A program made the translations under genes and the position numbers. Under the pieces are notes generated by a model that saw nothing but the letters and a program-made list of their open reading frames with translations, was not told the DNA's origin and did no database searches. From positions 71,760 through 135,759 of the forward strand of contig JAQUSJ010000001.1 in the NCBI GenBank assembly GCA_028715175.1: DNA of 64,000 nt, given 5' to 3'. Positions 19,419 through 45,040 of the stretch are shown piece by piece (position 1 is the stretch's first letter; each line of letters begins with the position of its first letter). The stretch comes from Candidatus Daviesbacteria bacterium (GTDB taxonomy: Bacteria; Patescibacteriota; Microgenomatia; Daviesbacterales; UBA10151).

Positions 19419-20378
19419 AAGCGGTAGATTAATTAGCTGGACTTCGGGTTCTAAGGTGATGCCGAATTTTTCTTTGACTTTTTGGGCATATTGTTTTGCC
19501 AATTCACAGAAAGCTTTGGCAGTGCCGCCGCCTGTATTTATAAACAAATTAGCATGGTTCGGTGAAATTTCTATTCCGTCTAATAATTTCCCTTTAGCTC
19601 TGACTGCTTCAAGTAGTACTCCGGCTGGCAGTTTCCCGTAAACTATTTTTTCTGGCTGGATCCTATCCAAAATATCTTTTGGTAAAGTTTCTGCCACAAT
19701 ATTTTTGAAAAAAGACCCAGGGCATTTTATGCCGGGAGGGTATTTAACCAGCCTTTTTGCAAGGATCTCTTTAACTTCCTGTTGCAAGGCTTCCGGATCG
19801 CCACTTTCCAGCTTGAAAGTAACTTCCAGAATAATGTCATGGTTTTGTTTGAAGATACTATCCCGATAATTAAACTGACATTCTTCTTTTGAAAGAGTAG
19901 TTATATTCTTCGCTTCACTCAGAATGACAACAGAGATAATATGATCGGAAATTGTTTGGCCATAAGCTCCGGCATTTCCATAAACTGCTCCGCCAACAGT
20001 ACCCGGAATCCCGGTGAGTTTTTGCAGTCCAGAAAACTCATTTTCGATGGTGTAATCAACAAAATCCTGCAAAAGAGTGCCACTTTTAACACTCAACATC
20101 ACACCTCCGAGGTGTAACAGCATTTCTTCACCTCGGAGGTGAGTTTCTTCTATGCCGGAAACCTCATTTTTAATAACCAAACAATCTATTCCTTCATCAG
20201 AAACTAATAAGTTGCTGCCGCCGCCAATTATCAGATAAGACATTAATTGATCTTTGGCATATTTTATGGCTTCTATTAATTCTTCCTCTGTTTTAACCTT
20301 GACAAATTTTTTGGCAGGGCCACCAATTTGTAAGGTGGTTATTTGACTCATTGGATAGTTATCCTTAAATTTAAGCAT
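19410..20378 (-). CDS. murB: UDP-N-acetylenolpyruvoylglucosamine reductase
   Basis: FAD-binding 'LQIGGPAKKF...IIGGGSNLL' N-terminus and the MurB C-terminal domain. Confidence 0.85.
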   Translation of the reverse strand: MLKFKDNYPMSQITTLQIGGPAKKFVKVKTEEELIEAIKYAKDQLMSYLIIGGGSNLLVSDEGIDCLVIKNEVSGIEETHLRGEEMLLHLGGVMLSVKSGTLLQDFVDYTIENEFSGLQKLTGIPGTVGGAVYGNAGAYGQTISDHIISVVILSEAKNITTLSKEECQFNYRDSIFKQNHDIILEVTFKLESGDPEALQQEVKEILAKRLVKYPPGIKCPGSFFKNIVAETLPKDILDRIQPEKIVYGKLPAGVLLEAVRAKGKLLDGIEISPNHANLFINTGGGTAKAFCELAKQYAQKVKEKFGITLEPEVQLINLPLLN

Positions 20379-20414: not shown

Positions 20415-21374
20415 ATGGAAAAGGCTATTCTAAAAACCCTCGCTTATGCGGATATTTTTGATTATCCGCTAAACACATATGAGCTTCATAAATGGTTAAT
20501 TGGCAAAAAATTGACATTAAGACAGGTAGAAAAAGCGCTGAAGAAATTGTATCAAGTATCTGGTATCAAGTATAAAGGAGAGTACTATTTTTTACCCCGA
20601 AGAAATAAATTAACGGCGAAAAGACGGCGAAGAGAAAAACAGTCTGCTATTTATTTCAGAAAGGCAAAAATTCTTTCTCAGGCTTTAAAGCTTATTCCTT
20701 GGATCAAGCTGGTAGGTGTATCCGGGGCTTTGGCTGTGGGAAACGCCGGAAAGAGCGACGATATAGATTTGTTAATTATTACAAGTAAAAATCGGTTATG
20801 GATTAGTAGGTTACTAGCATTAGGACTGCTGTCTTTGATAGGACGACGGAGAAAAGTTGGGGAAAAAGGCAGAAAAATTGCCGGAAAACTTTGTATTAAC
20901 ATTTTACTCGAAGAGGATAGATTGGAGCAACAAAGTAAAGATATCTTTGTCGCACATGAAGTATTACAAATGAAGGTTTTATGGCAAAGGGATGGAGTAT
21001 ATTCTAAATATCTAGAGGATAATGAATGGGCTTTTAAATTTTTACCAAACTGGATTGGTGTTATGGTAGCTCGTCGCGGCGCAAAAAAACGTTCGCACGG
21101 TAGAGACTTGCTCACTTGTGAGAATTTTGTGGAAGACCGTTATCTTCAGTCATTAAGAAAATCAGCCCAAAATCTTCAACATTTTTTGACTGCTCGTGAC
21201 TTCGCTACCCTTATTGTTAATTATTTGGAAGATTTTGCGAAAAGATGGCAGCTTAAGATTATGAAACAGCCGCAGGGTATGGAGCGGATAGAAGATGGGG
21301 CGCTATATTTTCATCCCAACGATTGCAGGTTAAAAATTTTATCTAAATATAAATTAAAAGTAAGAGATCTTTAG
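20415..21374 (+). CDS. Nucleotidyltransferase-domain protein (Pol-beta-like NTase superfamily)
   Basis: 'GVSGALAVGNAGKSDDIDLLII' matches the minimal NTase motif G[SG]x9-13DxD. Confidence 0.4.
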   Translation: MEKAILKTLAYADIFDYPLNTYELHKWLIGKKLTLRQVEKALKKLYQVSGIKYKGEYYFLPRRNKLTAKRRRREKQSAIYFRKAKILSQALKLIPWIKLVGVSGALAVGNAGKSDDIDLLIITSKNRLWISRLLALGLLSLIGRRRKVGEKGRKIAGKLCINILLEEDRLEQQSKDIFVAHEVLQMKVLWQRDGVYSKYLEDNEWAFKFLPNWIGVMVARRGAKKRSHGRDLLTCENFVEDRYLQSLRKSAQNLQHFLTARDFATLIVNYLEDFAKRWQLKIMKQPQGMERIEDGALYFHPNDCRLKILSKYKLKVRDL

Positions 21375-21397
21375 CAACTCTTGACAAGTAGTGCTAG
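21371..21397 (+). promoter_or_regulatory. CIRCE-like inverted repeat (TTAGCAaCTC-N8-tAGTGCTAg) overlapping a TTGACA -35 box upstream of groES
   Basis: The TAGCA/TGCTA arms are read directly. The HrcA repressor gene is present in the window. Confidence 0.4.
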
Positions 21398-21478
21398 TTT
21401 TTGGTATAAACTTCTTTCAGAAGACTATAATCTAATCGATTAGAACTCTTTTCTAGTCTGCCCTCATTAAGATTTCAT

Positions 21479-21799
21479 ATGCCAAAATTAAAAAAGAGCA
21501 TGAGCGACAAAGTACGTATAAAACCATTAATGGGTTATTGTTTAGTTGAACCCAGTGAAGCAGAAATTAAAACCGCTTCCGGTATAATTCTTCCGGAGAG
21601 TGCCCAGGAAAAACCGGCCCAAGGGGTAGTTCTGTCTTGCGGGGATGAAATGATACTGGAAAACGGAAAAACCCTGAAGTGCCCGGTAAAAGTGGGGAAT
21701 AAAGTAGTTTATAAAAAATGGGGCGGAGATGAAATTAAAGTTGATGGTAAAGAGTTAAAACTAGTAAAATTCGACGACCTGATGGCAATTTTGGAATAA
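21479..21799 (+). CDS. groES: Co-chaperonin GroES
   Basis: 'IKPLMGYCLVEP...SGIILPESAQEKPAQGVV' Cpn10 signature. Confidence 0.85.
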   Translation: MPKLKKSMSDKVRIKPLMGYCLVEPSEAEIKTASGIILPESAQEKPAQGVVLSCGDEMILENGKTLKCPVKVGNKVVYKKWGGDEIKVDGKELKLVKFDDLMAILE

Positions 21800-21802
21800 A
21801 CT

Positions 21803-22306
21803 ATGGCAAATATAGCAGTAGAAACTAGAATAGAATTTGGAATTGATCCAACATCGGTTGCGCCTGGTTGTGTAACAACAGCCCCAGTTGAAGTCTGGAG
21901 GTATCATACGCCCTTGGCACGTTCAACAGATGGTGGGGTTTATTATTTACACAGATTAGCCGAAAACCTCCACGGTAGATATATTGGAGGATTCGAGGCA
22001 TATGAGCGACTGGTAAAAAGAGGTATAAAAAGAGATAGCAAGGATGGACTTGACGAGTATGTTCGAGAAGTGGGCAGGGCTTTTGTGAAATGGCAAGGGA
22101 TTTCAGACGACAGTATAGGATTGACAGATAGTTCAAAAGCTGCTTGCGTTCTGGGATTGGCAGCCGAAGTAGTTGATCCAGATGGAACTCCAACAATCAG
22201 GTATCTTAATCGATCAATTGGTGTTTGGAGCAGATTAAAACCGGAAGATACTGCGTTAGAATATAACAAGATAACACATAATTGGGAACCAGTAGCGATT
22301 GAGTAA
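21803..22306 (+). CDS. Hypothetical protein inserted between groES and groEL
   Basis: 167-aa ORF starting 4 nt after the groES stop and ending 11 nt before the groEL start. GC-richer composition. No motif recognised. Confidence 0.45.
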
Positions 22307-22317
22307 AAGGTAAATTT

Positions 22318-23958
22318 ATGGCTAAGATTTTAAAATTTAATTCAGAAGCAAGAGAAAAATTATTAAAGGGTATTAATACCTTAACTGAAGCTGTGGCTAC
22401 TACTTTAGGGCCTAAAGGTAGAAATGTGGCTTTGGATAAAAAATGGGGTGCTCCTAATGTGGTTCACGACGGAGTGACTGTGGCCAAAGAGATCGAGCTG
22501 GAGGATCCGTTTGAAAATATGGGAGCCCAGCTTATTAAAGAAGCAGCCAGCAAAACTTCCGATGTGGCTGGTGATGGTACTACCACTGCTACGATTTTGG
22601 CAAAAGCTATAGTCACTGAGGGTTTAAAAAATATCCAAGCAGGTTCAAATCCCATGATTTTAAAGCGCGGAGTTGAAAAAGCAGTTGTCACCTTAGTTGA
22701 GGAGCTTAAAAAAATGAGCAAGAAAATTTCCACCCAAGAAGAAGTTGCTCAAGTGGCTACGATTTCTGCCTCAGATACTCAAATAGGCAATCTTATAGCA
22801 GAAGCTCTGCAAAAAGTCGGCAAAGACGGGGTGGTGACGGTTGAGGAAGGTAAAACCATGGAAATGAATGTGGATTATAAAGAAGGAATGGAATTTGATA
22901 AAGGTTTTGTTTCCCCTTATTTTGTGACAGATACGGACAAAATGGAGTCATCCATCGAAGATGCCTATATTTTGATCACCGATAAAAAGATTTCTTCCGC
23001 ACAAGATTTGGTACCATTCCTGGAAAAATTTGTGGCTGTTTCCAAGAATCTGGTAATTATTGCTGATGAGGTAGAAGGTGAAGCTTTGGCCCTTTTGGTA
23101 GTTAATAAACTGCGCGGTACTTTCAATGTTTTGGCGGTGAAAGCCCCTGGTTTTGGCGACCGAAGAAAAGAAATGCTGGAAGATATAGCTATTTTAACAG
23201 GTGGAATGGTAATTTCTGAAGATACCGGCAAAAAGTTTGAATCAGTGGAGATTGATGAGCTAGGTCGGGCAGGCAGAGTGACCTCTGATAAAGACAATAC
23301 ATTGATTGTTGATGGTAAAGGGGCCAAGACCAAAATCGAAGCCAGAATCGCTGCTATCAGAAGAGAGCTTGCTGCCTCTGATTCGGAATTTGATAAAGAA
23401 AAACTGCAAGAAAGACTGGCTAAGCTAACAGGTGGGGTGGCAGTGATTAATGTGGGGGCTGCCACAGAAATTGAACTGAAAGAGAAAAAAGAAAGAGTGA
23501 TTGATGCAGTGGCAGCCACAAAGGCGGCAATTGAGGAAGGGATTGTGGCCGGAGGAGAGGTGGCGCTGCTTCGGGCTGGTAAAGCTTTGGACGAGATAAA
23601 TGTTGACGACTCTTCGGCAAGCTCAGGGCAAGAGGAAAAAGTCGGAGTGGCAATTGTCCGCAAAGCCCTGGAACAGCCATTCAGGATGTTAGTTAAAAAT
23701 GCCGGTATGGATGATGGAATAGCATTATCTAAAGTAGTTAGTGAAACCGGTAATATGGGTGTTGATGTTTTAGACGGGGAAATTAAAGATTTAGTGAAGG
23801 CTGGAATTATAGATCCTGTGAAAGTAACCCGCTCTGCCTTGCAGAATGCTGCATCTGTGGCAGTGATGGTCATGACCACTAATTGCCTTATCAGCGATAA
23901 ACCGGAGCCTCCAGTTCCAACTCCTCCAATGCCCCCCGGCGGGATGGGAGAATACTAA
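22318..23958 (+). CDS. groEL: Chaperonin GroEL
   Basis: '[22 protein letters not shown]', '[12 protein letters not shown]' and the C-terminal GGM tail. Confidence 0.95.
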
Positions 23959-24001: not shown

Positions 24002-24997
24002 TTACTGCATGGTTGGGGGTCGATGCATGTTATCTATACCTGAAGCAAAGTTCTGAAAGTTTTGGCTAGAGGATCTATCAAATAACCTATCATTTCTTAT
24101 TGCCCTTGCTTCCTCTGGATCTTTACCGTCGTAAATGCTAAATGGTAAATATTCTACTTCTGGATAAGGAAATTGGCCTTCTGCGATGACCCGTAGCTGT
24201 TCTGGACTAACTGAGTTAACAGAAATATATCTACCTCCCCAAACTAAATCTTTCCATTTTGCAACATTTCCATCTAAATAATAGCCCTTTTCGTACCTGA
24301 AAACTCTGTCGCCTAATCCTTGAGGAAAAAGTCTTATTCGGACAATTCCGGGAATGGTGTGTTCTTGCTGCGACAAATCTGTAGCTAATAATGAAGCTTG
24401 TCTTTGTAATTCTGGTGTAGCGAACTCTGCTTGGACAGGATAAGGTTCTTCAAAAGTTATTGATCCGAACTGTACTTTTGTCTCTCTGAAACTGACAGTG
24501 GGGGTAAACGGAGTTACAGCCCAAGAGACATCTGCAAAGATTTCTGGGCGGAACATTGTTTTAAGAATTAGATTATACGCATCTGCAAATTGTTCTAGAG
24601 CTTTGAACAAACCTGGTCTTAGATAAGCTCTTTCCCAAGCTGCAGCATTAAGTAAATCTACTACCTCATGGTCTTCAGGGGGTTCAACTATAAGAGCAGC
24701 TGCTGGCTCAACGAAAAAATCACGTATACTTACAAATCTTTGGAATTCTATTCCGGGTTGAAGAAGGGTAAATTGACCAACTACTATGATACTGGGATTC
24801 TTTTTTAGTTCAGTCTCTATTCTGTCACCTAGAAATCTTCGTGGTAAACTTTCAAAGCTAAAACTTGTTGGATTTTGTGGGTTATCTTCTTTTCCTGTCA
24901 TAAATGATTTAGATAGCAGGGATATTATAGTGTTTTCAAGATAAAAGCAACTAATTTTGCTGTCAAAGGGTAGTTTTGATTGAATTTGATGGGCCAA
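24002..24997 (-). CDS. Hypothetical protein (331 aa), mildly GC-atypical
   Basis: Long ORF without recognisable motifs. Confidence 0.35.
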   Translation of the reverse strand: MAHQIQSKLPFDSKISCFYLENTIISLLSKSFMTGKEDNPQNPTSFSFESLPRRFLGDRIETELKKNPSIIVVGQFTLLQPGIEFQRFVSIRDFFVEPAAALIVEPPEDHEVVDLLNAAAWERAYLRPGLFKALEQFADAYNLILKTMFRPEIFADVSWAVTPFTPTVSFRETKVQFGSITFEEPYPVQAEFATPELQRQASLLATDLSQQEHTIPGIVRIRLFPQGLGDRVFRYEKGYYLDGNVAKWKDLVWGGRYISVNSVSPEQLRVIAEGQFPYPEVEYLPFSIYDGKDPEEARAIRNDRLFDRSSSQNFQNFASGIDNMHRPPTMQ

Positions 24998-25028: not shown

Positions 25029-25622
25029 ATGGTTAAGTTTCATTACCGCGAGTCTCCTACCGAAAAGCAAAAAAAGGCTTTCAGAAAATATTTATCTGAA
25101 GATGAAGAATTGGTTTTGGTAACCAGTCTATCTAAAGCTTATATAAGATCTAAGTTTATACTTAACTTACTTTTCCCGGGAATGCTATTTTTGGGGCTTG
25201 GTTTAGGGGTAGGATGGTTTTTTAATATTGGCAGAATTTGGGCCCTTGTTTTGGGATTAGGATTTATGTTTTTATCAGCCATACTTAAAACGATGCATGT
25301 TTATCATGCCAACAGATATTTGTTAACCACCAGAAGAGTCATTATTAAAAAAGGGTTATTCTCTGTTAAGCTGACTGCCGCACTTTTTGATAAAATTACC
25401 AATCTAGTGGTAGACCAATCGATTATTGACAGGTTGCTTTTACATCACGGTACCATTGTTGTAAATACAGCCGGAGTCAGCAAAGGAGAAATAATATTGA
25501 AATATGTGGATTCGCCTATGGAACTCAAAAATTTACTTGAAAGGTTAATTAACCGTGAAAGGGAACAATTTGGACTAAGGGGAGCTAGCTTAACAGAAGT
25601 GGAAGGAGAGATTATTACGTAG
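25029..25622 (+). CDS. Bacterial PH-domain (YdbS/YdbT-like) membrane protein
   Basis: Two TM helices followed by a bPH_2-like domain ('LLTTRRVIIKKGLFS'). Its last 26 codons lie in direct repeat A. Confidence 0.5.
   Translation: MVKFHYRESPTEKQKKAFRKYLSEDEELVLVTSLSKAYIRSKFILNLLFPGMLFLGLGLGVGWFFNIGRIWALVLGLGFMFLSAILKTMHVYHANRYLLTTRRVIIKKGLFSVKLTAALFDKITNLVVDQSIIDRLLLHHGTIVVNTAGVSKGEIILKYVDSPMELKNLLERLINREREQFGLRGASLTEVEGEIIT
25539..25616. repeat. Direct repeat A (the actual 3' end of the PH-domain gene)
   Basis: Aligned by eye with 30223-30300. Confidence 0.85.
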
Positions 25623-26472
25623 TATTAGTTTTATTTTTCTGTGCTGTAAGTATGTAATATCCCGCTTTTCCTTTTCTAAGTAACCTTTGTAAGCCAGCAA
25701 GCAGTGTTTCTATGTCTTGATGCGAACTTTCTGCATCTAAACTTTGTCCATTGGGTGAGGAATCATGATAATCTACTGGAGAGACAACATTTTCAGTTAT
25801 ATTTCTAGGATTTATACATGAAAAGCCATTTGCTAATAGAAGAGCAACTAATTCTTGTATATGAGTAATATTAGGAATATGCATGTGTGTTTTGAGCTCT
25901 GCTATGATGTCGACTTCTTCTTTTGTTAATGTATGTGGATGCATAAATATATCTGCTATTGTTATTATGCCTTTAGATTTCAAGATTCTACTTGATTCTT
26001 GTATTAAGCCTGTTTTGTCTTGAGAGTGAATAAAACTCTCACAAAAAATTATTCTATCGAAAGTTCCACTTCGAAAAGCAAGATGTTCATAGTCTTGGAT
26101 AGAGAATATAGGGCAAAACGAGTCATCTCGATCTTCATATTGACTTGCGAGATGGATATGATTTCTTGATATGTCTATCCCGTATACCCCTGCTTTTGGC
26201 TCAATGTGTTTAATTTCGAATGCTAAGGTCCCTACGCCACATCCTGCATCTAAGATGACTTGTCCAGATTTTATTTCGCTTAGTTCAATAATTCTCCGAG
26301 ACATTTGTAAAGCTGAAATGGAGTTATCTAAAGGTTCACCCCAGTCTTGTTGGTAGCCGATATGCATAGCATAAAGTCCTATTCTCTTTGGATCAGGTGA
26401 CCACTTTAAAAAAATAGGGGCTGTTTGTCTATAGAAAGTTTCTATCTCTTGACGCCTTTCATTATTAGCCAT
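25615..26472 (-). CDS. Class I SAM-dependent methyltransferase (candidate tailoring enzyme of the RiPP cluster)
   Basis: 'VILDAGCGVGTLA' motif I. Its stop overlaps the PH-domain gene stop by 8 nt. Confidence 0.7.
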   Translation of the reverse strand: MANNERRQEIETFYRQTAPIFLKWSPDPKRIGLYAMHIGYQQDWGEPLDNSISALQMSRRIIELSEIKSGQVILDAGCGVGTLAFEIKHIEPKAGVYGIDISRNHIHLASQYEDRDDSFCPIFSIQDYEHLAFRSGTFDRIIFCESFIHSQDKTGLIQESSRILKSKGIITIADIFMHPHTLTKEEVDIIAELKTHMHIPNITHIQELVALLLANGFSCINPRNITENVVSPVDYHDSSPNGQSLDAESSHQDIETLLAGLQRLLRKGKAGYYILTAQKNKTNTT

Positions 26473-26602
26473 AACTCAGACAGTATTTTATCACAGATAA
26501 TATTTACTATGGGCGATATTAATATCTTGTTTTGATAATCAGATTATGGTATAGACTTAGTAATGAATAGATTAATTCTTTTACGAAAGGAGGTGAAATA
26601 AT

Positions 26603-26788
26603 ATGAGTCATCATCCAGAACAATCAGAACAGTTGAGACGCAGTATGGCAGATGCAAAAGAATTTCGGGCTACTCAAGGCGTCAAAGGGACAAGAGCTTT
26701 TTTGTGTATGCCTCAACCTTGCGCACCGCCGCCACATCCACCGCCTTGTAAACCACCATGCTCTCCTTGCGTGGGACAGATTAAGTAG
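26603..26788 (+). CDS. RiPP precursor peptide (TOMM/LAP-like): leader plus a Cys/Pro-rich core 'FLCMPQPCAPPPHPPPCKPPCSPCVGQIK'
   Basis: 61 aa. Strong SD 'AAAGGAGGTGA' 7 nt upstream. It lies directly upstream of the YcaO gene. The C-terminal 28 residues carry six Cys. Confidence 0.65.
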   Translation: MSHHPEQSEQLRRSMADAKEFRATQGVKGTRAFLCMPQPCAPPPHPPPCKPPCSPCVGQIK

Positions 26789-26856
26789 TAAAAGGTTTTT
26801 GCAAGAAGGGGCTGAAACATATTTTGTATAATTAATTATCCTGCCGAGTGTAGAAT

Positions 26857-28161
26857 ATGAATATAAATGGTTTCTTTCAGAGGATAAGTAGGTTTGTATT
26901 GAATAATCCTAAAATTGTAAAGAGTTTCTACAAGACGCCGAATTATAATGATGAGCCTCAGCTGTATCAGTATTCTTCGCAATTTATAGATGGTAATTCG
27001 TTAAGAGTGTCAATGGATTCGATAGCTTCGGGAACATCATTTGACAAGAATAGCGCATTATTGAAACTATTGGGAGAAACAGTAGAAAGATATTCTCTTA
27101 GTATATACGATAATAGTAAATTAATTTATAGAAGTTTCCGTGAGCTAGTTTGTAAAAATAAAAATGCTTTAAATCCAACTGGACTAGCATTACTACCTCA
27201 ATTCTTCAAAGAGAACAAGAAAGAAGCCCTCTATGATATCAAATTTTACTGGGTTATAGGTAAGTCTTTAGTTACTAATAAGAATATATTGGTTCCTGCT
27301 CAACTTATTTTTGTTCCATATTCCCATTCTAAATCTGAGCCTATTCTTCAAACGCCGATATCAACAGGAGCTGCAGCAGGAGAGGCGATTTACGATGCGC
27401 TCTATAGAGGTATTTGTGAAGTTATAGAACGGGATTCTTTTATGATCCATTATTACAATAAAATAAGCTCTCCTAGAATTAATCCTTACTCTTTAAGAAG
27501 TAAGAAAATCTCAAAAATAATCAGAATATTTGAAAGGTATAATTTAGAATTATGTGTTAACGATATAACAACTGATATTGGTGTTCCTGCTGTTATAGCT
27601 ACTGTTATCGATAAAACTGGTCTGGGACCTGCTATTTGTGTTGGACTTAAGGCGGGATTTGATATGAACCAAAATGTGATTGGTGCTACTGAGGAGACTC
27701 TTATGGTTCGTTCATGGATTCGGGATGAATATATGTATTTGAAGCCTAAACATAGTTCTCCTAGGATAATTAGTACTATAGAAGAAAGAGCAAATTTCTG
27801 GTGTCCTACAAGTACAATTCATTATTTGGATTTCTGGTTAAGCACGAGAAATAACGGAGGTTCTTATAAATTATGCAAATTTAGGCGAAGTTCTTACAAA
27901 GAAAAGGTTATGGAATTGATAAGAATATTGAAATCGAAAGGGCTTGACATTATTTATATTGATATAACTGCTCCCGAAATACGTAAGTATAATGTAAAGG
28001 TGGTTAAAGTGATAATACCTCAGTTGCAGCCGGTACATTTAGATGAAAGATATCCATATCTTACTTTTCAAAGATTGTATAATGCGCCCGTAAATATGGG
28101 AATTTTAGGAAGACCTAAGACATTTGAAGAACTTAATAGTATTCCTCATCCATTTTTATGA
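26857..28161 (+). CDS. YcaO-domain cyclodehydratase
   Basis: 'SGTSFDKNSALLKLLGETVERYS' is the YcaO ATP-binding motif. 'STGAAAGEAIYDALYRGICEVIERDS' is the second conserved YcaO block. Confidence 0.8.
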   Translation: MNINGFFQRISRFVLNNPKIVKSFYKTPNYNDEPQLYQYSSQFIDGNSLRVSMDSIASGTSFDKNSALLKLLGETVERYSLSIYDNSKLIYRSFRELVCKNKNALNPTGLALLPQFFKENKKEALYDIKFYWVIGKSLVTNKNILVPAQLIFVPYSHSKSEPILQTPISTGAAAGEAIYDALYRGICEVIERDSFMIHYYNKISSPRINPYSLRSKKISKIIRIFERYNLELCVNDITTDIGVPAVIATVIDKTGLGPAICVGLKAGFDMNQNVIGATEETLMVRSWIRDEYMYLKPKHSSPRIISTIEERANFWCPTSTIHYLDFWLSTRNNGGSYKLCKFRRSSYKEKVMELIRILKSKGLDIIYIDITAPEIRKYNVKVVKVIIPQLQPVHLDERYPYLTFQRLYNAPVNMGILGRPKTFEELNSIPHPFL

Positions 28162-28940
28162 AAAAAGATTATAGAAAGAGATTATTGAGCATAATTGACG
28201 GAAAGGAGTATTTGTCGGATAAATTTAATCGAGCCACAAATAATAAAAACATTAGCGCTTGGGGTCGCAAAAAGAGCCCTGAGGCATGGATCAAGATTCA
28301 TTTTAAAACCTACCCACGCCTAAATAGAATAAAATTAGTAAAAGTTTTCCAAAATAGGAAGATATCTTTAGTAGATGTGCTAAAAAATAGGCGTTCGAGT
28401 AGGACTTTTTCAGGTAAACCTATTTCCATAAAAGATTTATCTTACTTATTATTATATTCAAGTGGTATTATCGATCATGGGTTTGCACCGGATAAGAGTA
28501 GAAGGGTATATCCCTCAGCTGGAGCACGCTATCCGTTAGAAGTATATCCACTCATTCTTAGCGATGGTGATGGAGTGAAAGCTGGTTTGTATCATTATAA
28601 TGTGAAAGAGCATATTTTAGAAGTTATCCTAAAGGAAGATTTAAAACACTGGTTGCTTGAGTCTACTGGTAATTTCAAACCAATAATTAAAGCAAGTGTG
28701 GTGTTTATTGTTACAGGAGTTCTTGATCGAACTAGAGTAAAATATGGAGATAGAGGGTATAGATACGTACTAATGGAAGCAGGGCATATGGCCCAAAATT
28801 TATTACTTCTTGCAACCGGTTTAGGAATGGCTAATTTGGCGATTGGAGGGTATACAGATTCTAAGGTTACAGAGTTGTTGAATTTGGAATTAGTGAAAGA
28901 GGTATCATTGTATATGATTGCTGTAGGTGGATATGTCTAA
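28158..28940 (+). CDS. SagB-type (McbC-like) FMN-dependent dehydrogenase
   Basis: 'RRSSRTF', 'PSAGARYPLEVYPLIL' and 'GLYHYN' are characteristic of SagB/nitroreductase-fold azoline dehydrogenases. ATGA overlap with the YcaO gene. Confidence 0.8.
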   Translation: MKKDYRKRLLSIIDGKEYLSDKFNRATNNKNISAWGRKKSPEAWIKIHFKTYPRLNRIKLVKVFQNRKISLVDVLKNRRSSRTFSGKPISIKDLSYLLLYSSGIIDHGFAPDKSRRVYPSAGARYPLEVYPLILSDGDGVKAGLYHYNVKEHILEVILKEDLKHWLLESTGNFKPIIKASVVFIVTGVLDRTRVKYGDRGYRYVLMEAGHMAQNLLLLATGLGMANLAIGGYTDSKVTELLNLELVKEVSLYMIAVGGYV

Positions 28941-30216
28941 ACATAGTTTAATTAGATTAGAAAATGGCTTGACGCTATTTTTACAGCGTATTCCGAGGGT
29001 GCGTTCTGTTTCTGTTTCCATCGGTGTTAGGGCAGGTTCTAGGTATGAGACGAAAGAAACGGCTGGATTGGCACATTTTCTGGAACATATGTTATTTGAG
29101 GGTACCAAACAATATCCAACAGCCAAAAAATTAGCAGAGCAAATAGAAAGAGTTGGTGGACACTCCGGTGCATATACCAATAGAGAATATGTAATTTATA
29201 ATGTTAAAGTTTTTGAAAAGTATCTAGAGATAGCTTTTAAGTATCTTTCTCAAATTATTTTTGATTCAAGTTTGGAATTGAGTAATATTGAGAAGGAGAA
29301 AAGTATTGTTCTGGAGGAGATAAAACGAGTAGCAGATAATCCTGAACAAGTAATTTGGGAAGAATGGATGAAATGGGTATGGGATACTGATCAGCCACTT
29401 GGTCGTTCGATTCTGGGAGACAAAGAAACAGTTCAAAAAATTACTAAATCAAAACTGCAGGCATACTTGCAAAATTTATATGTACCCCAAAATATGATAC
29501 TTACAGTGGTAGGAAATTTTTCATTGTTAGAGGTAGAAAAATATGTTCGAAAATACTTTGATGTAAAAATGACTGGGAAGATTCCAGTATTACAAAAATC
29601 AGAATTGCCCGAGCACAAAAGTAAAACTAAAGTCATGCAGTTAGATACACAGCAAGTTCAACTACTCTGTGGTTTTGTGACTGGTGTTTCGTATTTCCAC
29701 AAAGATCGATTCATAATGTGGTTACTGGCTGAACTCTTAAGTGGAGGAGTAAGTGCGAGGATATTTCAAAAGCTTATTTACGAACTGGGAATTGCTTATT
29801 CTGCCGGAACATATGATATGGAATTCAAGGATACGGGAATATTCTTTATTTATGGTGGATTTGCTAAAGAAAATATTGAGAAAGCCATAACGACTATTTT
29901 TGACGAACTAAGAGAACTTCAAATGAAAAGCGTCATTCCTGATGAATTGGCTAGCGCAAAAGAGAGAAGTATAGCCAGATTATATTTTTCTGCAGAAAAA
30001 CCAGATTATCTTGCTGGTTTACATGCGACACAATTTATTACAGAGGGGAAAATAATGACGATAGAGACACTATCAGAGGAAATAAATCAGGTAAGTTCAG
30101 CTGATGTTAAGAGAGTTGCGCAAAAATATTTTAATAATTCAGATGTATATATTATGTTGCGTGGTCCAGTAAGACAAGATCAAGTAAAAATAATTGATGA
30201 AATAATTGATAGGTAA
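28927..30216 (+). CDS. M16-family (pitrilysin-like) zinc peptidase; candidate leader peptidase
   Basis: Inverzincin motif 'HFLEHMLFEGT' (HxxEH). Overlaps the dehydrogenase gene by 14 nt. Confidence 0.8.
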   Translation: MDMSKHSLIRLENGLTLFLQRIPRVRSVSVSIGVRAGSRYETKETAGLAHFLEHMLFEGTKQYPTAKKLAEQIERVGGHSGAYTNREYVIYNVKVFEKYLEIAFKYLSQIIFDSSLELSNIEKEKSIVLEEIKRVADNPEQVIWEEWMKWVWDTDQPLGRSILGDKETVQKITKSKLQAYLQNLYVPQNMILTVVGNFSLLEVEKYVRKYFDVKMTGKIPVLQKSELPEHKSKTKVMQLDTQQVQLLCGFVTGVSYFHKDRFIMWLLAELLSGGVSARIFQKLIYELGIAYSAGTYDMEFKDTGIFFIYGGFAKENIEKAITTIFDELRELQMKSVIPDELASAKERSIARLYFSAEKPDYLAGLHATQFITEGKIMTIETLSEEINQVSSADVKRVAQKYFNNSDVYIMLRGPVRQDQVKIIDEIIDR

Positions 30217-43388: not shown

Positions 43389-43904
43389 TTATTGCGAATA
43401 AAACCAGAAACTATCTATTTTTTTATATGGTTTCCAGTTTGGAAAATGGTAAGTTTGGGTAATGATTACTGTTTTCTTTTTTAATTCTTTTTTCAATTTT
43501 TCTTCTAATTTTTTAACACCTTTTGGTAAAAGATAAATATAGATTACATCAGCGTCAGCATAATTTTTTGAAAAAAGATTGCCATGATAAAATTTTACGT
43601 TCCCAGGCGTGGTCTGGGAAGCTGATTTTATGCGAGAATAAAGAACGCGCAGCCATGATTGTTCAATGCCCACTGAATGCGCTCCTAAGCTGGCTGCTGC
43701 AAAAACAACCCTGCCATCCCCGGATCCTAATTCATAAAACTTTTTTCCTCTTTTTACGCCAGCTAATTTCAAAATCTTTTTTATTTGATCCATTTTAGTG
43801 GGAACAAACGGTGCGTCAGTTCCGGCAAACCAGGATAGGGCTATAACGCAACCTATTAAGATGCCTCCGGAGATAATGAGTGATATATCCATATTTTGTG
43901 TCAT
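43389..43904 (-). CDS. Class I SAM-dependent methyltransferase (small)
   Basis: 'FYELGSGDGRVV' motif I. The annotated ATG lies inside repeat 43898-43968, so the true start may be Met5. Confidence 0.5.
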   Translation of the reverse strand: MTQNMDISLIISGGILIGCVIALSWFAGTDAPFVPTKMDQIKKILKLAGVKRGKKFYELGSGDGRVVFAAASLGAHSVGIEQSWLRVLYSRIKSASQTTPGNVKFYHGNLFSKNYADADVIYIYLLPKGVKKLEEKLKKELKKKTVIITQTYHFPNWKPYKKIDSFWFYSQ

Positions 43905-43968
43905 CCTGAACGTAGCGAAAGATCTTCCGTGGTCGCGGAAGATTGCCCGCTAATCGCTCGCAATGACG
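43898..43968. repeat. Palindromic repeat element, GTCATCCTGA family (intergenic MTase/femAB-like)
   Basis: 'tgtcatcctgaacgtagcgaaagatcttccg...cggaagattgcccgctaatcgctcgcaatgacgg'. Confidence 0.7.
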
Positions 43969-43972
43969 GGAA

Positions 43973-45040
43973 TTATTTCCCAATCAATTTTAGCAAAAAA
44001 ATTTTGAGTGGAGTTAAGCGGTCTACAGCAGTAAACAGCCAATATACCGGCCAGTTAAATACCAAATCATAAGTCCCGATATATTCTGTTAATTGTCCTC
44101 CATATCCCTGTTTAAACTTATGAAAGCCAAACCAGGGATCTTTTGGATTTGCATCAGGACCCAGGGCTCCCCACATGTCAAACTTTTTAAAACCCATTTT
44201 TTTACCTAATTTTATAGCTTCCCAGGCCACTAAATTATTTGCCATTACCTCCGGGTGGATTTTGGAAGAACCGCCGTAAGGGTAATAAAGAGTACCTTTA
44301 AAATTTAACAGCATCCAGGCAGTTAAGGGTAGTTGGTAGTAAGCAATAAGTAAACGAGCCATGCCGGCATTTTTCAGGGTTTGCCAGACTTTGCGGTGAT
44401 AGTTTTTATTATGTCCATGATAACCTTGTCTTTTGGTAGTTTCAAAATATAATTTTAAATAAATTTCAAAAGCCTCATCGTCCCTTCTTTCTTCCACTCT
44501 TACTCGATGTTTTTGGGCAACCTTGATGTTGTATCTGGTTTTCGGGTGCATTTTTTTTAAAAGTTCTTCTTCTGATTTTGTTAAATCAACAATAAAATTA
44601 TATTTAGTAAATAACGGTTTAGGGGATTTGATAAAATTCGTATCAACGCTGTCATTCTGAGCGATTAGCGAAGAATATAATTCTGGGTTTATATCCTTCG
44701 TTTCACTCAGGACGACAGGATGAATGTTAGCGATGACATCAGGCTCTATTTTTATGAAAGCGCAATTATTTTCCTGGCCGATTTTTTTTAAAGCTTTTGC
44801 TAATTCTTTGTTAGGGAATGGACCTTTTGGGAGGTAGCCGACGTATTGGTTTGTAAAGGGAATCTTATGTAAAGTTAGCTGGAAGGCTTTGGATAATTTG
44901 TTTCCGTGGTATATGCCGTAGCGCAGAAGCGGAATTTGTAGAGATTTTCTAAACTCTCCCCATTCGTATGACTGGATGACATGAGTAACTAATTTGTTGT
45001 ACTGTGATTTTTGTTTGTCGCCGATTGGTCGTAAATCCAT
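43973..45040 (-). CDS. FemAB-family peptidoglycan bridge-formation (aminoacyltransferase) protein
   Basis: FemABX-like length and the 'KTRYNIK' motif. It contains an in-frame palindromic element at 44650-44717. Confidence 0.6.
   Translation of the reverse strand: MDLRPIGDKQKSQYNKLVTHVIQSYEWGEFRKSLQIPLLRYGIYHGNKLSKAFQLTLHKIPFTNQYVGYLPKGPFPNKELAKALKKIGQENNCAFIKIEPDVIANIHPVVLSETKDINPELYSSLIAQNDSVDTNFIKSPKPLFTKYNFIVDLTKSEEELLKKMHPKTRYNIKVAQKHRVRVEERRDDEAFEIYLKLYFETTKRQGYHGHNKNYHRKVWQTLKNAGMARLLIAYYQLPLTAWMLLNFKGTLYYPYGGSSKIHPEVMANNLVAWEAIKLGKKMGFKKFDMWGALGPDANPKDPWFGFHKFKQGYGGQLTEYIGTYDLVFNWPVYWLFTAVDRLTPLKIFLLKLIGK
44650..44717. repeat. Palindromic repeat element, GTCATTCTGAGCG family, in frame in the FemAB-family gene (encodes 'VVLSETKDINPELYSSLIAQND')
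   Basis: 'gtcattctgagcgattagcgaagaatata...tatatccttcgtttcactcaggacgac'. Confidence 0.8.

Follow-up and report, generated by a model that had tools for sequence, protein, structure and literature searches.

The pairing of groES with groEL is among the most conserved gene adjacencies in bacteria, and the locus described here raises the question of how a third gene came to lie between the two. In a 64,000-nucleotide (nt) stretch of a Candidatus Daviesbacteria genome (assembly GCA_028715175.1, contig JAQUSJ010000001.1, positions 71,760–135,759 of the forward strand; hereafter, the window), the interval between the chaperonin genes is filled by an open reading frame (ORF) of 167 codons, designated ORF167. 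We consider it fairly probable that ORF167 is a species-specific accessory passenger inserted into a permissive groES–groEL slot; the way in which it was inserted and its role are those that we infer.

The ATG of ORF167 lies 3 nt past the groES stop codon and its own stop codon 11 nt before the groEL start, within a gap of 518 nt, and the initial annotation had placed the ORF correctly. In shuffled versions of this gap, a stop-free run of 167 codons has a probability of about 1e-4 by the empirical and 4e-6 by the analytic estimate. Codon usage was modelled on 47 long ORFs from the window, and the score, expressed as the in-frame advantage per codon, was 0.173 for ORF167, compared to 0.04–0.28 (median 0.168) for the real genes of the window and at most 0.024 for spurious overlapping ORFs. 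The G+C fractions at the three codon positions (GC1/GC2/GC3 of 0.54/0.46/0.29) show the periodicity of an established gene in an AT-biased genome and match the bias of the host. ORF167 had been described as GC-richer than its neighbours; with 42.5% it does exceed groES (about 39.5%) but not groEL (about 43%), while the median gene of the window has 38.3%, and 13% of the window genes equal or surpass ORF167. Since the excess falls on codon positions 1 and 2 and not on position 3, and groEL is equally GC-rich, base composition was ruled out as a sign of foreign origin. The gene is also called in the source record (hypothetical protein PHE48_00580, Candidatus Daviesbacteria bacterium), on a contig of 743,708 bp that is collinear with relatives on both flanks of the slot. 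ORF167 is thus a genuine protein-coding gene and not a chance ORF.

The product of ORF167 (18.6 kDa, isoelectric point 5.6, grand average of hydropathy -0.32, 4 Trp, 8 Tyr, no transmembrane segment, and a globular-like composition) is probably a soluble, mildly acidic cytoplasmic protein. No family was found in Pfam, NCBIfam (E ≤ 1 or E ≤ 10), PHROGs, or PADLOC, which bears out the initial remark that the protein has no recognisable motif; in particular, the toxin–antitoxin and defence profiles of Pfam and PADLOC gave no match, and neither PF00166 nor any chaperone profile was hit that would place the protein in the Cpn10/GroES family or another known co-chaperone family. A search against PDB sequences yielded nothing below E = 1.6, and a BLASTP comparison with the GroES of the window gave E = 36, i.e., no similarity. 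Both a word-indexed search of 5.77 billion protein clusters and an exhaustive HMMER scan of 1.84 billion representatives returned only ORF167 itself, and no paralogue was found in the same metagenome-assembled genome, whose other proteins were included in the database searched. There was no relative in IMG/VR, none among 50,697 INPHARED phage records (tblastn, E ≤ 1), and no tblastn match in 173 groESL loci. At the nucleotide level, neither a source nor a second copy of the DNA was detected by blastn or tblastx in the window and all fetched loci, and an origin by duplication or overprinting of local sequence was rejected on the same empty searches. An Rfam scan of positions 21200–22500 at E ≤ 1 revealed only a sub-threshold glycine-riboswitch match inside groES and no intron, and internal tandem repeats are absent from ORF167. 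A single-sequence AlphaFold2 model was uninformative (predicted local distance difference test, pLDDT, 40; predicted template modelling score, pTM, 0.33). With its coding signature and its self-only matches, ORF167 is a taxonomically restricted orphan (ORFan).

For comparison, the window GroEL served as query against GTDB genomes and JGI metagenomes, which gave 160 loci, and closer relatives were added by protein search and context look-ups (loci are cited by L numbers). In the closest relative, L161 (GCA_028712705.1), GroEL is 97% identical (P0003), the groEL DNA is 90% identical, and third codon positions are 77% identical; its slot is empty, with groES ending at position 588 and groEL starting at 593 after a 4-nt spacer. 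On a neighbour-joining tree of GroEL, which left out L009 because of runs of N, the window is sister to L161 and nested among L162, L164, and L165, all with spacers of 3–4 nt; such precisely empty slots are characteristic of the nearest relatives at 88–97% GroEL identity. ORF167 is absent from L161, L162, L164, L165, L167, L169, and others, about half of the clade has no occupant at all, and no blastn or tblastx similarity to the insert was detected in any locus. With an empty sister and empty-slot neighbours, the most parsimonious history has ORF167 gained on the terminal branch, and an insertion on the branch leading to this genome is the most likely origin, in line with the capture proposed in the initial annotation. 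Because only 4 nt are present at the corresponding site of L161, the 518 nt would have come from elsewhere rather than evolved in place. Since the nearest relatives lack the gene, it lies outside the core chaperonin machine and is dispensable for chaperonin function.

A comparison of groESL loci, suggested in the initial annotation, revealed a hypervariability of the slot across Daviesbacteria that the latter had missed: while the slot of the sister is empty, other Daviesbacteria hold different, unrelated ORFs. Of the 26 loci in which the gap could be measured and GroEL shares at least 69% identity with that of the window, 8 have gaps of more than 200 nt; such gaps are also present in the window itself (518 nt), in L009 (968 nt), and in L085 (244 nt or more), versus none of 135 more distant loci (median 39 nt, maximum 189 nt), including other Microgenomates lineages (Gottesman-, Levy-, Woese-, Chisholm-, and Beckwithbacteria). 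Within the clade, the spacer ranges from 3 to 968 nt and holds 0–2 ORFs. In total, 11 Daviesbacteria-clade loci contain 15 slot ORFs of 62–167 amino acids (aa), all on the operon strand and tightly packed (Table 1); the 14 that were scored, all except that of L166, have coding-type codon scores (0.09–0.28). Profile scans gave no significant family match, the best PADLOC and PHROG E-values among the ORFs scanned being 0.018–0.035. No similarity between slot ORFs was detected by BLASTP or by Smith–Waterman comparison with shuffles (91 pairs; maximum z of 3.2, within multiple-testing expectation), by a motif scan, or by cross-locus tblastn; resemblances noted by eye ('xLGLxxxxDP' and 'IGVW') were dropped for want of any signal in the pairwise or motif tests. 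The only other occupant compared with the 5.77 billion clusters, that of L005, is likewise a singleton. The inserts are stable within species: 29 contigs carry that of L006, with only one amino-acid variant among them, and variants of the first L007 ORF (L007a) and of the L130 ORF are at least 90% identical. Besides ORFs, the slot contains non-coding expansions of 104–128 nt in L001, L084, and L168, and an element resembling miniature inverted-repeat transposable elements (MITE-like, GTCATCCTGAG...GAAGGATC) in L001 and L005. The groES/groEL junction is thus a recurrent insertion slot in the Daviesbacteria clade. An arrangement of three genes with one conserved protein family in all relatives, which the initial annotation had set against an insertion, is clearly not found in the related loci examined, and its suggestion of a new co-chaperone-like accessory found no support either: the nearest relatives and about half of the clade lack the gene, the occupants of the slot in other genomes are unrelated to it and among themselves, and it bears no similarity to GroES.

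Table 1. Features of the groESL locus and its surroundings in the window, and ORFs occupying the groES–groEL slot in related loci.
Feature	Locus	Position	Strand	Length	Basis
groESL promoter region	window	21371-21410	+		read from sequence
groES, Cpn10	window	21479-21799	+	106 aa	Pfam PF00166, E=2.6e-27
ORF167, orphan gene in groES-groEL slot	window	21803-22306	+	167 aa	ORF call and host-like coding signature
spacer (AAGGTAAATTT), weak purine-rich Shine–Dalgarno-like AAGG 5' of groEL start	window	22307-22317	+	11 nt	sequence
groEL, Cpn60	window	22318-23958	+	546 aa	Pfam PF00118, E=3e-73
S-adenosylmethionine (SAM) methyltransferase	window	25615-26472	-		
candidate precursor, Cys/Pro-rich (MSHHPEQ...CMPQPCAPPPHPPPCKPPCSPCVGQIK)	window	26603-26788		61 aa	
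YcaO cyclodehydratase	window	26857-28161			Pfam, 2e-52
nitroreductase-family (SagB-like) protein	window	28158-28940			
M16 peptidase	window	28927-30216			
slot ORF	L003			68 aa	
slot ORF	L005			142 aa	
slot ORF	L006			82 aa	
slot ORFs	L007			115 + 115 aa	
slot ORFs	L009			116 + 143 aa	
slot ORFs	L081			62 + 82 aa	
slot ORFs	L082			117 + 85 aa	
slot ORF	L085			80 aa	
slot ORF	L130			146 aa	
slot ORF	L166			97 aa	

Three of the relatives carry relics that point to the way in which the slot may be filled. In L005, the complete groES (...MAILE*) is followed by 61 nt with a MITE-like piece and then by a second groES tail (scar span 2476–2566); this second tail, TTTGATGATTTAATGGGAGTTTTAGAATAA (FDDLMGVLE*) at 2537–2566, matches the tail of L130 in 28 of 30 positions and that of its own groES in 20 of 30. 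In L009, positions 2494–2563 between the two slot genes read ATGGCAAAATTAATATTTGAT|GATTTAATAGGAGGTTTAAGATGA, where the left part aligns with the head of groEL (p = 0.002 by shuffling) and the right part (2534–2563) is an L130-type groES tail (23/30, versus background best matches of 16–19/30). The two parts are fused at TTTGAT, common to both genes: groES ends with ...KFDD..., and groEL starts with MAKILKFD.... In L003 (relic at 2955–2994), the final ~32 nt of the 68-aa ORF reproduce the groES tail with gaps, at a score of 32 versus a null maximum of 22. The relics of L005 and L009 belong to the allele type of L130 (MGVLE) and not to that of the host (MAILE or MAILA), which implies transfer or recombination between lineages at the chaperonin genes. 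The relics in the three loci are what homologous recombination on one side, combined with an illegitimate or microhomology-mediated join on the other, would leave; naturally transformable bacteria are known to use this mechanism, termed homology-facilitated illegitimate recombination.

The slot probably acquires its cargo via recombination anchored in the conserved chaperonin genes, with homology on one side and a microhomology or illegitimate join on the other, and the only survivors would be inserts leaving groEL co-transcribed and translated. Such selection would make the occupants small, same-strand, tightly packed, and terminator-free. Most likely, ORF167 has an accessory, lineage-specific role, or it is a nearly neutral passenger that benefits from an operon with strong expression and induction by stress.

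The predicted groESL promoter consists of a -35 box TTGACA (21381–21386), an 18-nt spacer with TG at 21402–21403, and a -10 box TATAAA (21405–21410). An imperfect 27-nt palindrome, TTAGCAACTCTTGACAAGTAGTGCTAG, at 21371–21397 overlaps the -35 box and resembles CIRCE (controlling inverted repeat of chaperone expression). The operator had been called CIRCE-like in the initial annotation; it has the correct span of 27 nt and outer arms (TTAGCA-N15-TGCTAG) that are unique in the window versus 0.02 occurrences expected, but the palindrome is degenerate, matching the consensus TTAGCACTC-N9-GAGTGCTAA in 13 of 18 positions by hand count and giving no match at three or fewer mismatches. The core CTTGACAA...TGCTAG...TATAAA is kept upstream of groES in L001–L005 and L009, and the left arm of the palindrome is absent in L001–L003, the three closest GTDB relatives. 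The 5' untranslated region (UTR) of groES (21411–21478) contains two short hairpin-forming palindromes, CTTCTTTCAGAAG and TCTAATCGATTAGA, and a CTGCC(C)TC motif conserved in L001–L005 about 20 nt before the groES start; these could constitute a regulatory RNA element, for example, a thermosensor.

No terminator-like sites were found on the + strand between groES and groEL, and promoter-like matches there were not above shuffle expectation, so an internal promoter or terminator was dropped from consideration and co-transcription from the groES promoter is the default assumption. The conserved TTGACA-18-TATAAA promoter, with its CIRCE-like palindrome, would drive ORF167 along with groES and groEL. 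Shine–Dalgarno-like 4-mers precede only 7 of the 53 window genes. Both this scarcity and the distance of just 3 nt from the stop codon of groES to the ATG suggest that initiation is coupled or leader-independent; ORF167 would probably be translated by coupling or re-initiation. In the empty slot of L161, GGAG within the groES stop region precedes groEL, and a purine-rich Shine–Dalgarno-like motif before groEL is kept in most loci, with or without an insert.

Several points weigh against the view of ORF167 as an inserted passenger. Precise loss in the L161 lineage would explain its empty slot as well, although it requires parallel precise losses in L162, L164, and L165. The junctions of the window carry no significant duplication or relic (the best 30-mer match, 17/30, equals the background), so the insertion mechanism for ORF167 is extrapolated from the three relatives, and a donor sequence is known for none of the slot cargo genes. 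Expression of ORF167, like its co-transcription with groES and groEL, is a prediction from the sequence. A chaperonin-related fold would be compatible with the uninformative single-sequence model (pLDDT 40). Moreover, the junctions downstream of groEL and between murB and groES are also variable, and the slot may reflect general genome fluidity plus selection instead of being a dedicated hotspot. Read most simply, insertions occur at a high background rate in these genomes, and selection strongly favours those that leave groEL co-transcribed and translated. The groES/groEL slot is still distinct from these neighbours in lying inside the operon and in having occupants that are all small, co-oriented, and orphan.

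The head of ORF167, ATGGCAAATAT, resembles that of groEL (MANI... versus MAKI...), its tail, ...GCGATTGAGTAA, resembles that of groES (...AIE* versus ...AILE*), and blastn extends positions 585–603 of L161 onto both window junctions. A target-site duplication was considered on this account and rejected as evidence, because the resemblance is within the range of other gene starts and ends in the genome; it is at most compatible with a duplication.

A more ambitious version of the insertion model, which we regard as an unlikely one, is that groESL acts as an integrase-free cassette slot. Recombination with its anchors in the ultra-conserved end of groES and start of groEL, partly via TTTGAT, would repeatedly take up, stack, and swap orphan genes that lack promoters, and these would come under the control of a strong promoter inducible by stress. 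The cargo, with ORF167 among it, would form a hidden pool of proteins with fast turnover (e.g., for phage conflict or for the interaction between host and episymbiont). TTTGAT, encoding Phe-Asp, is present near the 3' end of groES and near the 5' end of groEL in several clade genomes.

The absence of homologues in the protein searches could also be explained by a birth of ORF167 de novo from non-coding DNA, for example, from an expanded, MITE-seeded spacer that the operon exposed to translation. Transcription would be guaranteed by the operon context, and the 104–128-nt non-coding expansions in L001, L084, and L168, as well as the MITE-like element in L001 and L005, are consistent with such a route. 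It is, however, rather improbable, considering that the sister L161 has just 4 nt and no in-situ non-coding precursor is visible, and that ORF167 is long, globular-like, rich in GC1 and GC2 relative to the genome, free of internal tandem repeats, and fully mature in its codon signature; an ORF of 167 codons would arise by chance with a probability of about 1e-4 to 4e-6.

Alternatively, the slot proteins, including ORF167, could be members of one ancient, very fast-evolving family (a chaperonin accessory, modulator, or dedicated client) that is ancestral and was repeatedly lost. The position in the slot and a heat-shock co-regulation would suit a chaperonin partner, the occupants share the orientation of groES and groEL and are tightly coupled to them, all five deeper lineages on the neighbour-joining tree (L005, L006, L007, L081, and L082, with L009 outside the tree) carry slot ORFs, and the first-position ORFs in L007, L009, and L082 are near-equal in length (115, 116, and 117 aa). 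We see little likelihood of a single family, given that 91 pairwise comparisons revealed no similarity (maximum z of 3.2) and no motif is shared, lengths vary from 62 to 167 aa with one or two genes per slot, slots are precisely empty at 88–97% GroEL identity and about half of the clade is unoccupied, there is no similarity to GroES, and the relics represent discrete insertion events.

It could likewise be hypothesised that the occupants are fast-turnover conflict genes (phage defence, anti-defence, or phage-derived moron-like genes) exploiting a groESL promoter induced by heat shock or infection. Many phages depend on the host GroEL and GroES, which favours such a role, and extreme diversity, orphan status, small size, rapid turnover, and within-species stability are typical of such accessories; in several relatives, PIN-domain genes are found at the adjoining groEL/bPH_2 junction. 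This support is circumstantial: no significant PADLOC or PHROG match was obtained among the scanned slot ORFs (best E-values of 0.018–0.035), ORF167 has no relative in IMG/VR or INPHARED, and integrase or phage genes are not adjacent. A conflict function is therefore only faintly probable.

The initial annotation had also offered the remnant of a mobile insertion, and a degraded element (homing endonuclease gene, intron, transposon, or integron cassette) would fit the status of ORF167 as an insertion relative to L161 and the MITE-like repeats that land in the locus of relatives and are present in three copies elsewhere in the window. For the window this reading is very improbable, since neither an endonuclease, transposase, or integrase domain nor an Rfam intron was found, terminal inverted or direct repeats do not exceed chance, no significant flanking repeat is present, the insert is single-copy in the window and lacks the MITE-like motif, and the ORF is intact with a mature coding signature; recombination scars at this junction are those of three relatives. 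Finally, that ORF167 is a chance ORF or an assembly artefact, as its single occurrence in public data might suggest, is barely conceivable in view of the coding statistics, the gene call in the source record, the 743,708-bp contig collinear with relatives on both sides, and the analogous slot genes of 10 independent assemblies, one such gene being present on 29 contigs.

The preferred reading, a passenger inserted in a permissive slot, can be compared with known systems. Gene order, orientation, and a single sigma-70-like promoter overlapped by an inverted repeat with CIRCE-type outer arms are those of a canonical bicistronic groESL operon under CIRCE/HrcA control, and the closest relatives of the window keep the usual 3–4-nt spacer. 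The locus differs from this model in its third, unrelated gene, in the spacer of 3–968 nt with 0–2 ORFs across the clade, and in the degenerate operator (13/18), the left arm of which the closest relatives do not keep. Hypervariable islets or hotspots between core genes are similar in having conserved flanks, lineage-specific cargo, and empty sites in close relatives, and those arising by homology-facilitated illegitimate recombination also in the duplicated flanks of a foreign allele at the L005 and L009 junctions. Unlike them, the slot lies inside a two-gene essential operon, its cargo consists of one or two tiny co-oriented ORFs, the cargo tested consists of singletons without a family, and no recombinase is associated.

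Arrays of integron cassettes share promoterless, co-oriented, packed small ORFs under an upstream promoter, and the two-cassette stacks, with a junction relic in between in L009, are reminiscent of them. However, no integrase gene came to notice among the neighbouring ORFs inspected (no search was aimed at attC and attI sites), terminal repeats do not exceed chance, and the relics at the junctions duplicate the ends of groES and groEL and are not recombination sites. ORF167 resembles the ORFans of Patescibacteria and other members of the candidate phyla radiation (CPR) in its occurrence in a single genome, small size, lack of a domain, and annotation as hypothetical, but differs from other CPR ORFans in that its insertion point is known to the nucleotide from the empty-site sister, and its position is common to 14 other unrelated ORFans. 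Origin and turnover thereby become measurable.

Literature searches turned up neither a description of this slot nor any gene reported to lie between groES and groEL. Orphan genes and variable islets are already known, while a hypervariable orphan slot within groESL in a single CPR lineage is new as far as the literature searched shows, and a different orphan in nearly every occupied lineage at so conserved a junction is unexpected. ORF167 alone is of modest immediate significance, being a dispensable protein found in one species. The slot as a whole offers a clean system for the study of orphan origin and turnover, with a nucleotide-exact insertion point, empty sisters, expression supplied by the operon, and scars preserved in some lineages; if the cassette-slot model were true, it would be a natural gene trap for studying the entry of orphans into bacterial genomes. 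The groESL operon of CPR bacteria should not be assumed to be bicistronic, nor should the length of the groES–groEL spacer be used as a neutral marker in this group.

Several GTDB records among the compared loci (L003, L004, L008–L012, and others), with GroEL 64–89% identical to that of Daviesbacteria, are titled 'uncultured Gammaproteobacteria bacterium (binchicken...)', which is evidently a placeholder or wrong taxonomy for CPR genomes.

The MITE-like sequence GTCATCCTGAG..GCGAAGGATC is present in three copies in the window, at 19904–19928 (-), 43900–43924 (+), and 44692–44716 (-), versus 0 expected, and is absent from positions 21800–22317. One copy lies in frame within a MurB-like ORF and is translated as VILSEAKNI. 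Related sequences occur in non-coding parts of the groESL locus, namely, the slots of L001 and L005 and the groES 5' UTR of L161.

Upstream of the operon, a 319-aa gene between murB and groES (20415–21374, +) has a weak nucleotidyltransferase-like Pfam match (E = 0.008); it is kept at this position in many Microgenomates and absent in L001, L006, L007, and L165, which makes it one more variable gene of the neighbourhood. Two more segments within 9 kb are present in the window but not in L161. The first is a 331-aa ORF with a TTG start (24002–24997, -) between groEL and a conserved bPH_2 gene. It has no Pfam or PHROG match and no tblastn match in related loci, is absent from L161 and L001, where bPH_2 directly follows groEL, and is a second lineage-specific orphan flanking groEL. 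In relatives, the groEL/bPH_2 junction contains PIN, YjbQ, IspG-like, and other genes. The second segment, of about 4.6 kb (25615–30216), carries the methyltransferase, candidate precursor, YcaO, nitroreductase-family, and M16 peptidase genes listed in Table 1 and looks like an azol(in)e-type, YcaO-type gene cluster for a ribosomally synthesised and post-translationally modified peptide (RiPP) in a CPR genome.

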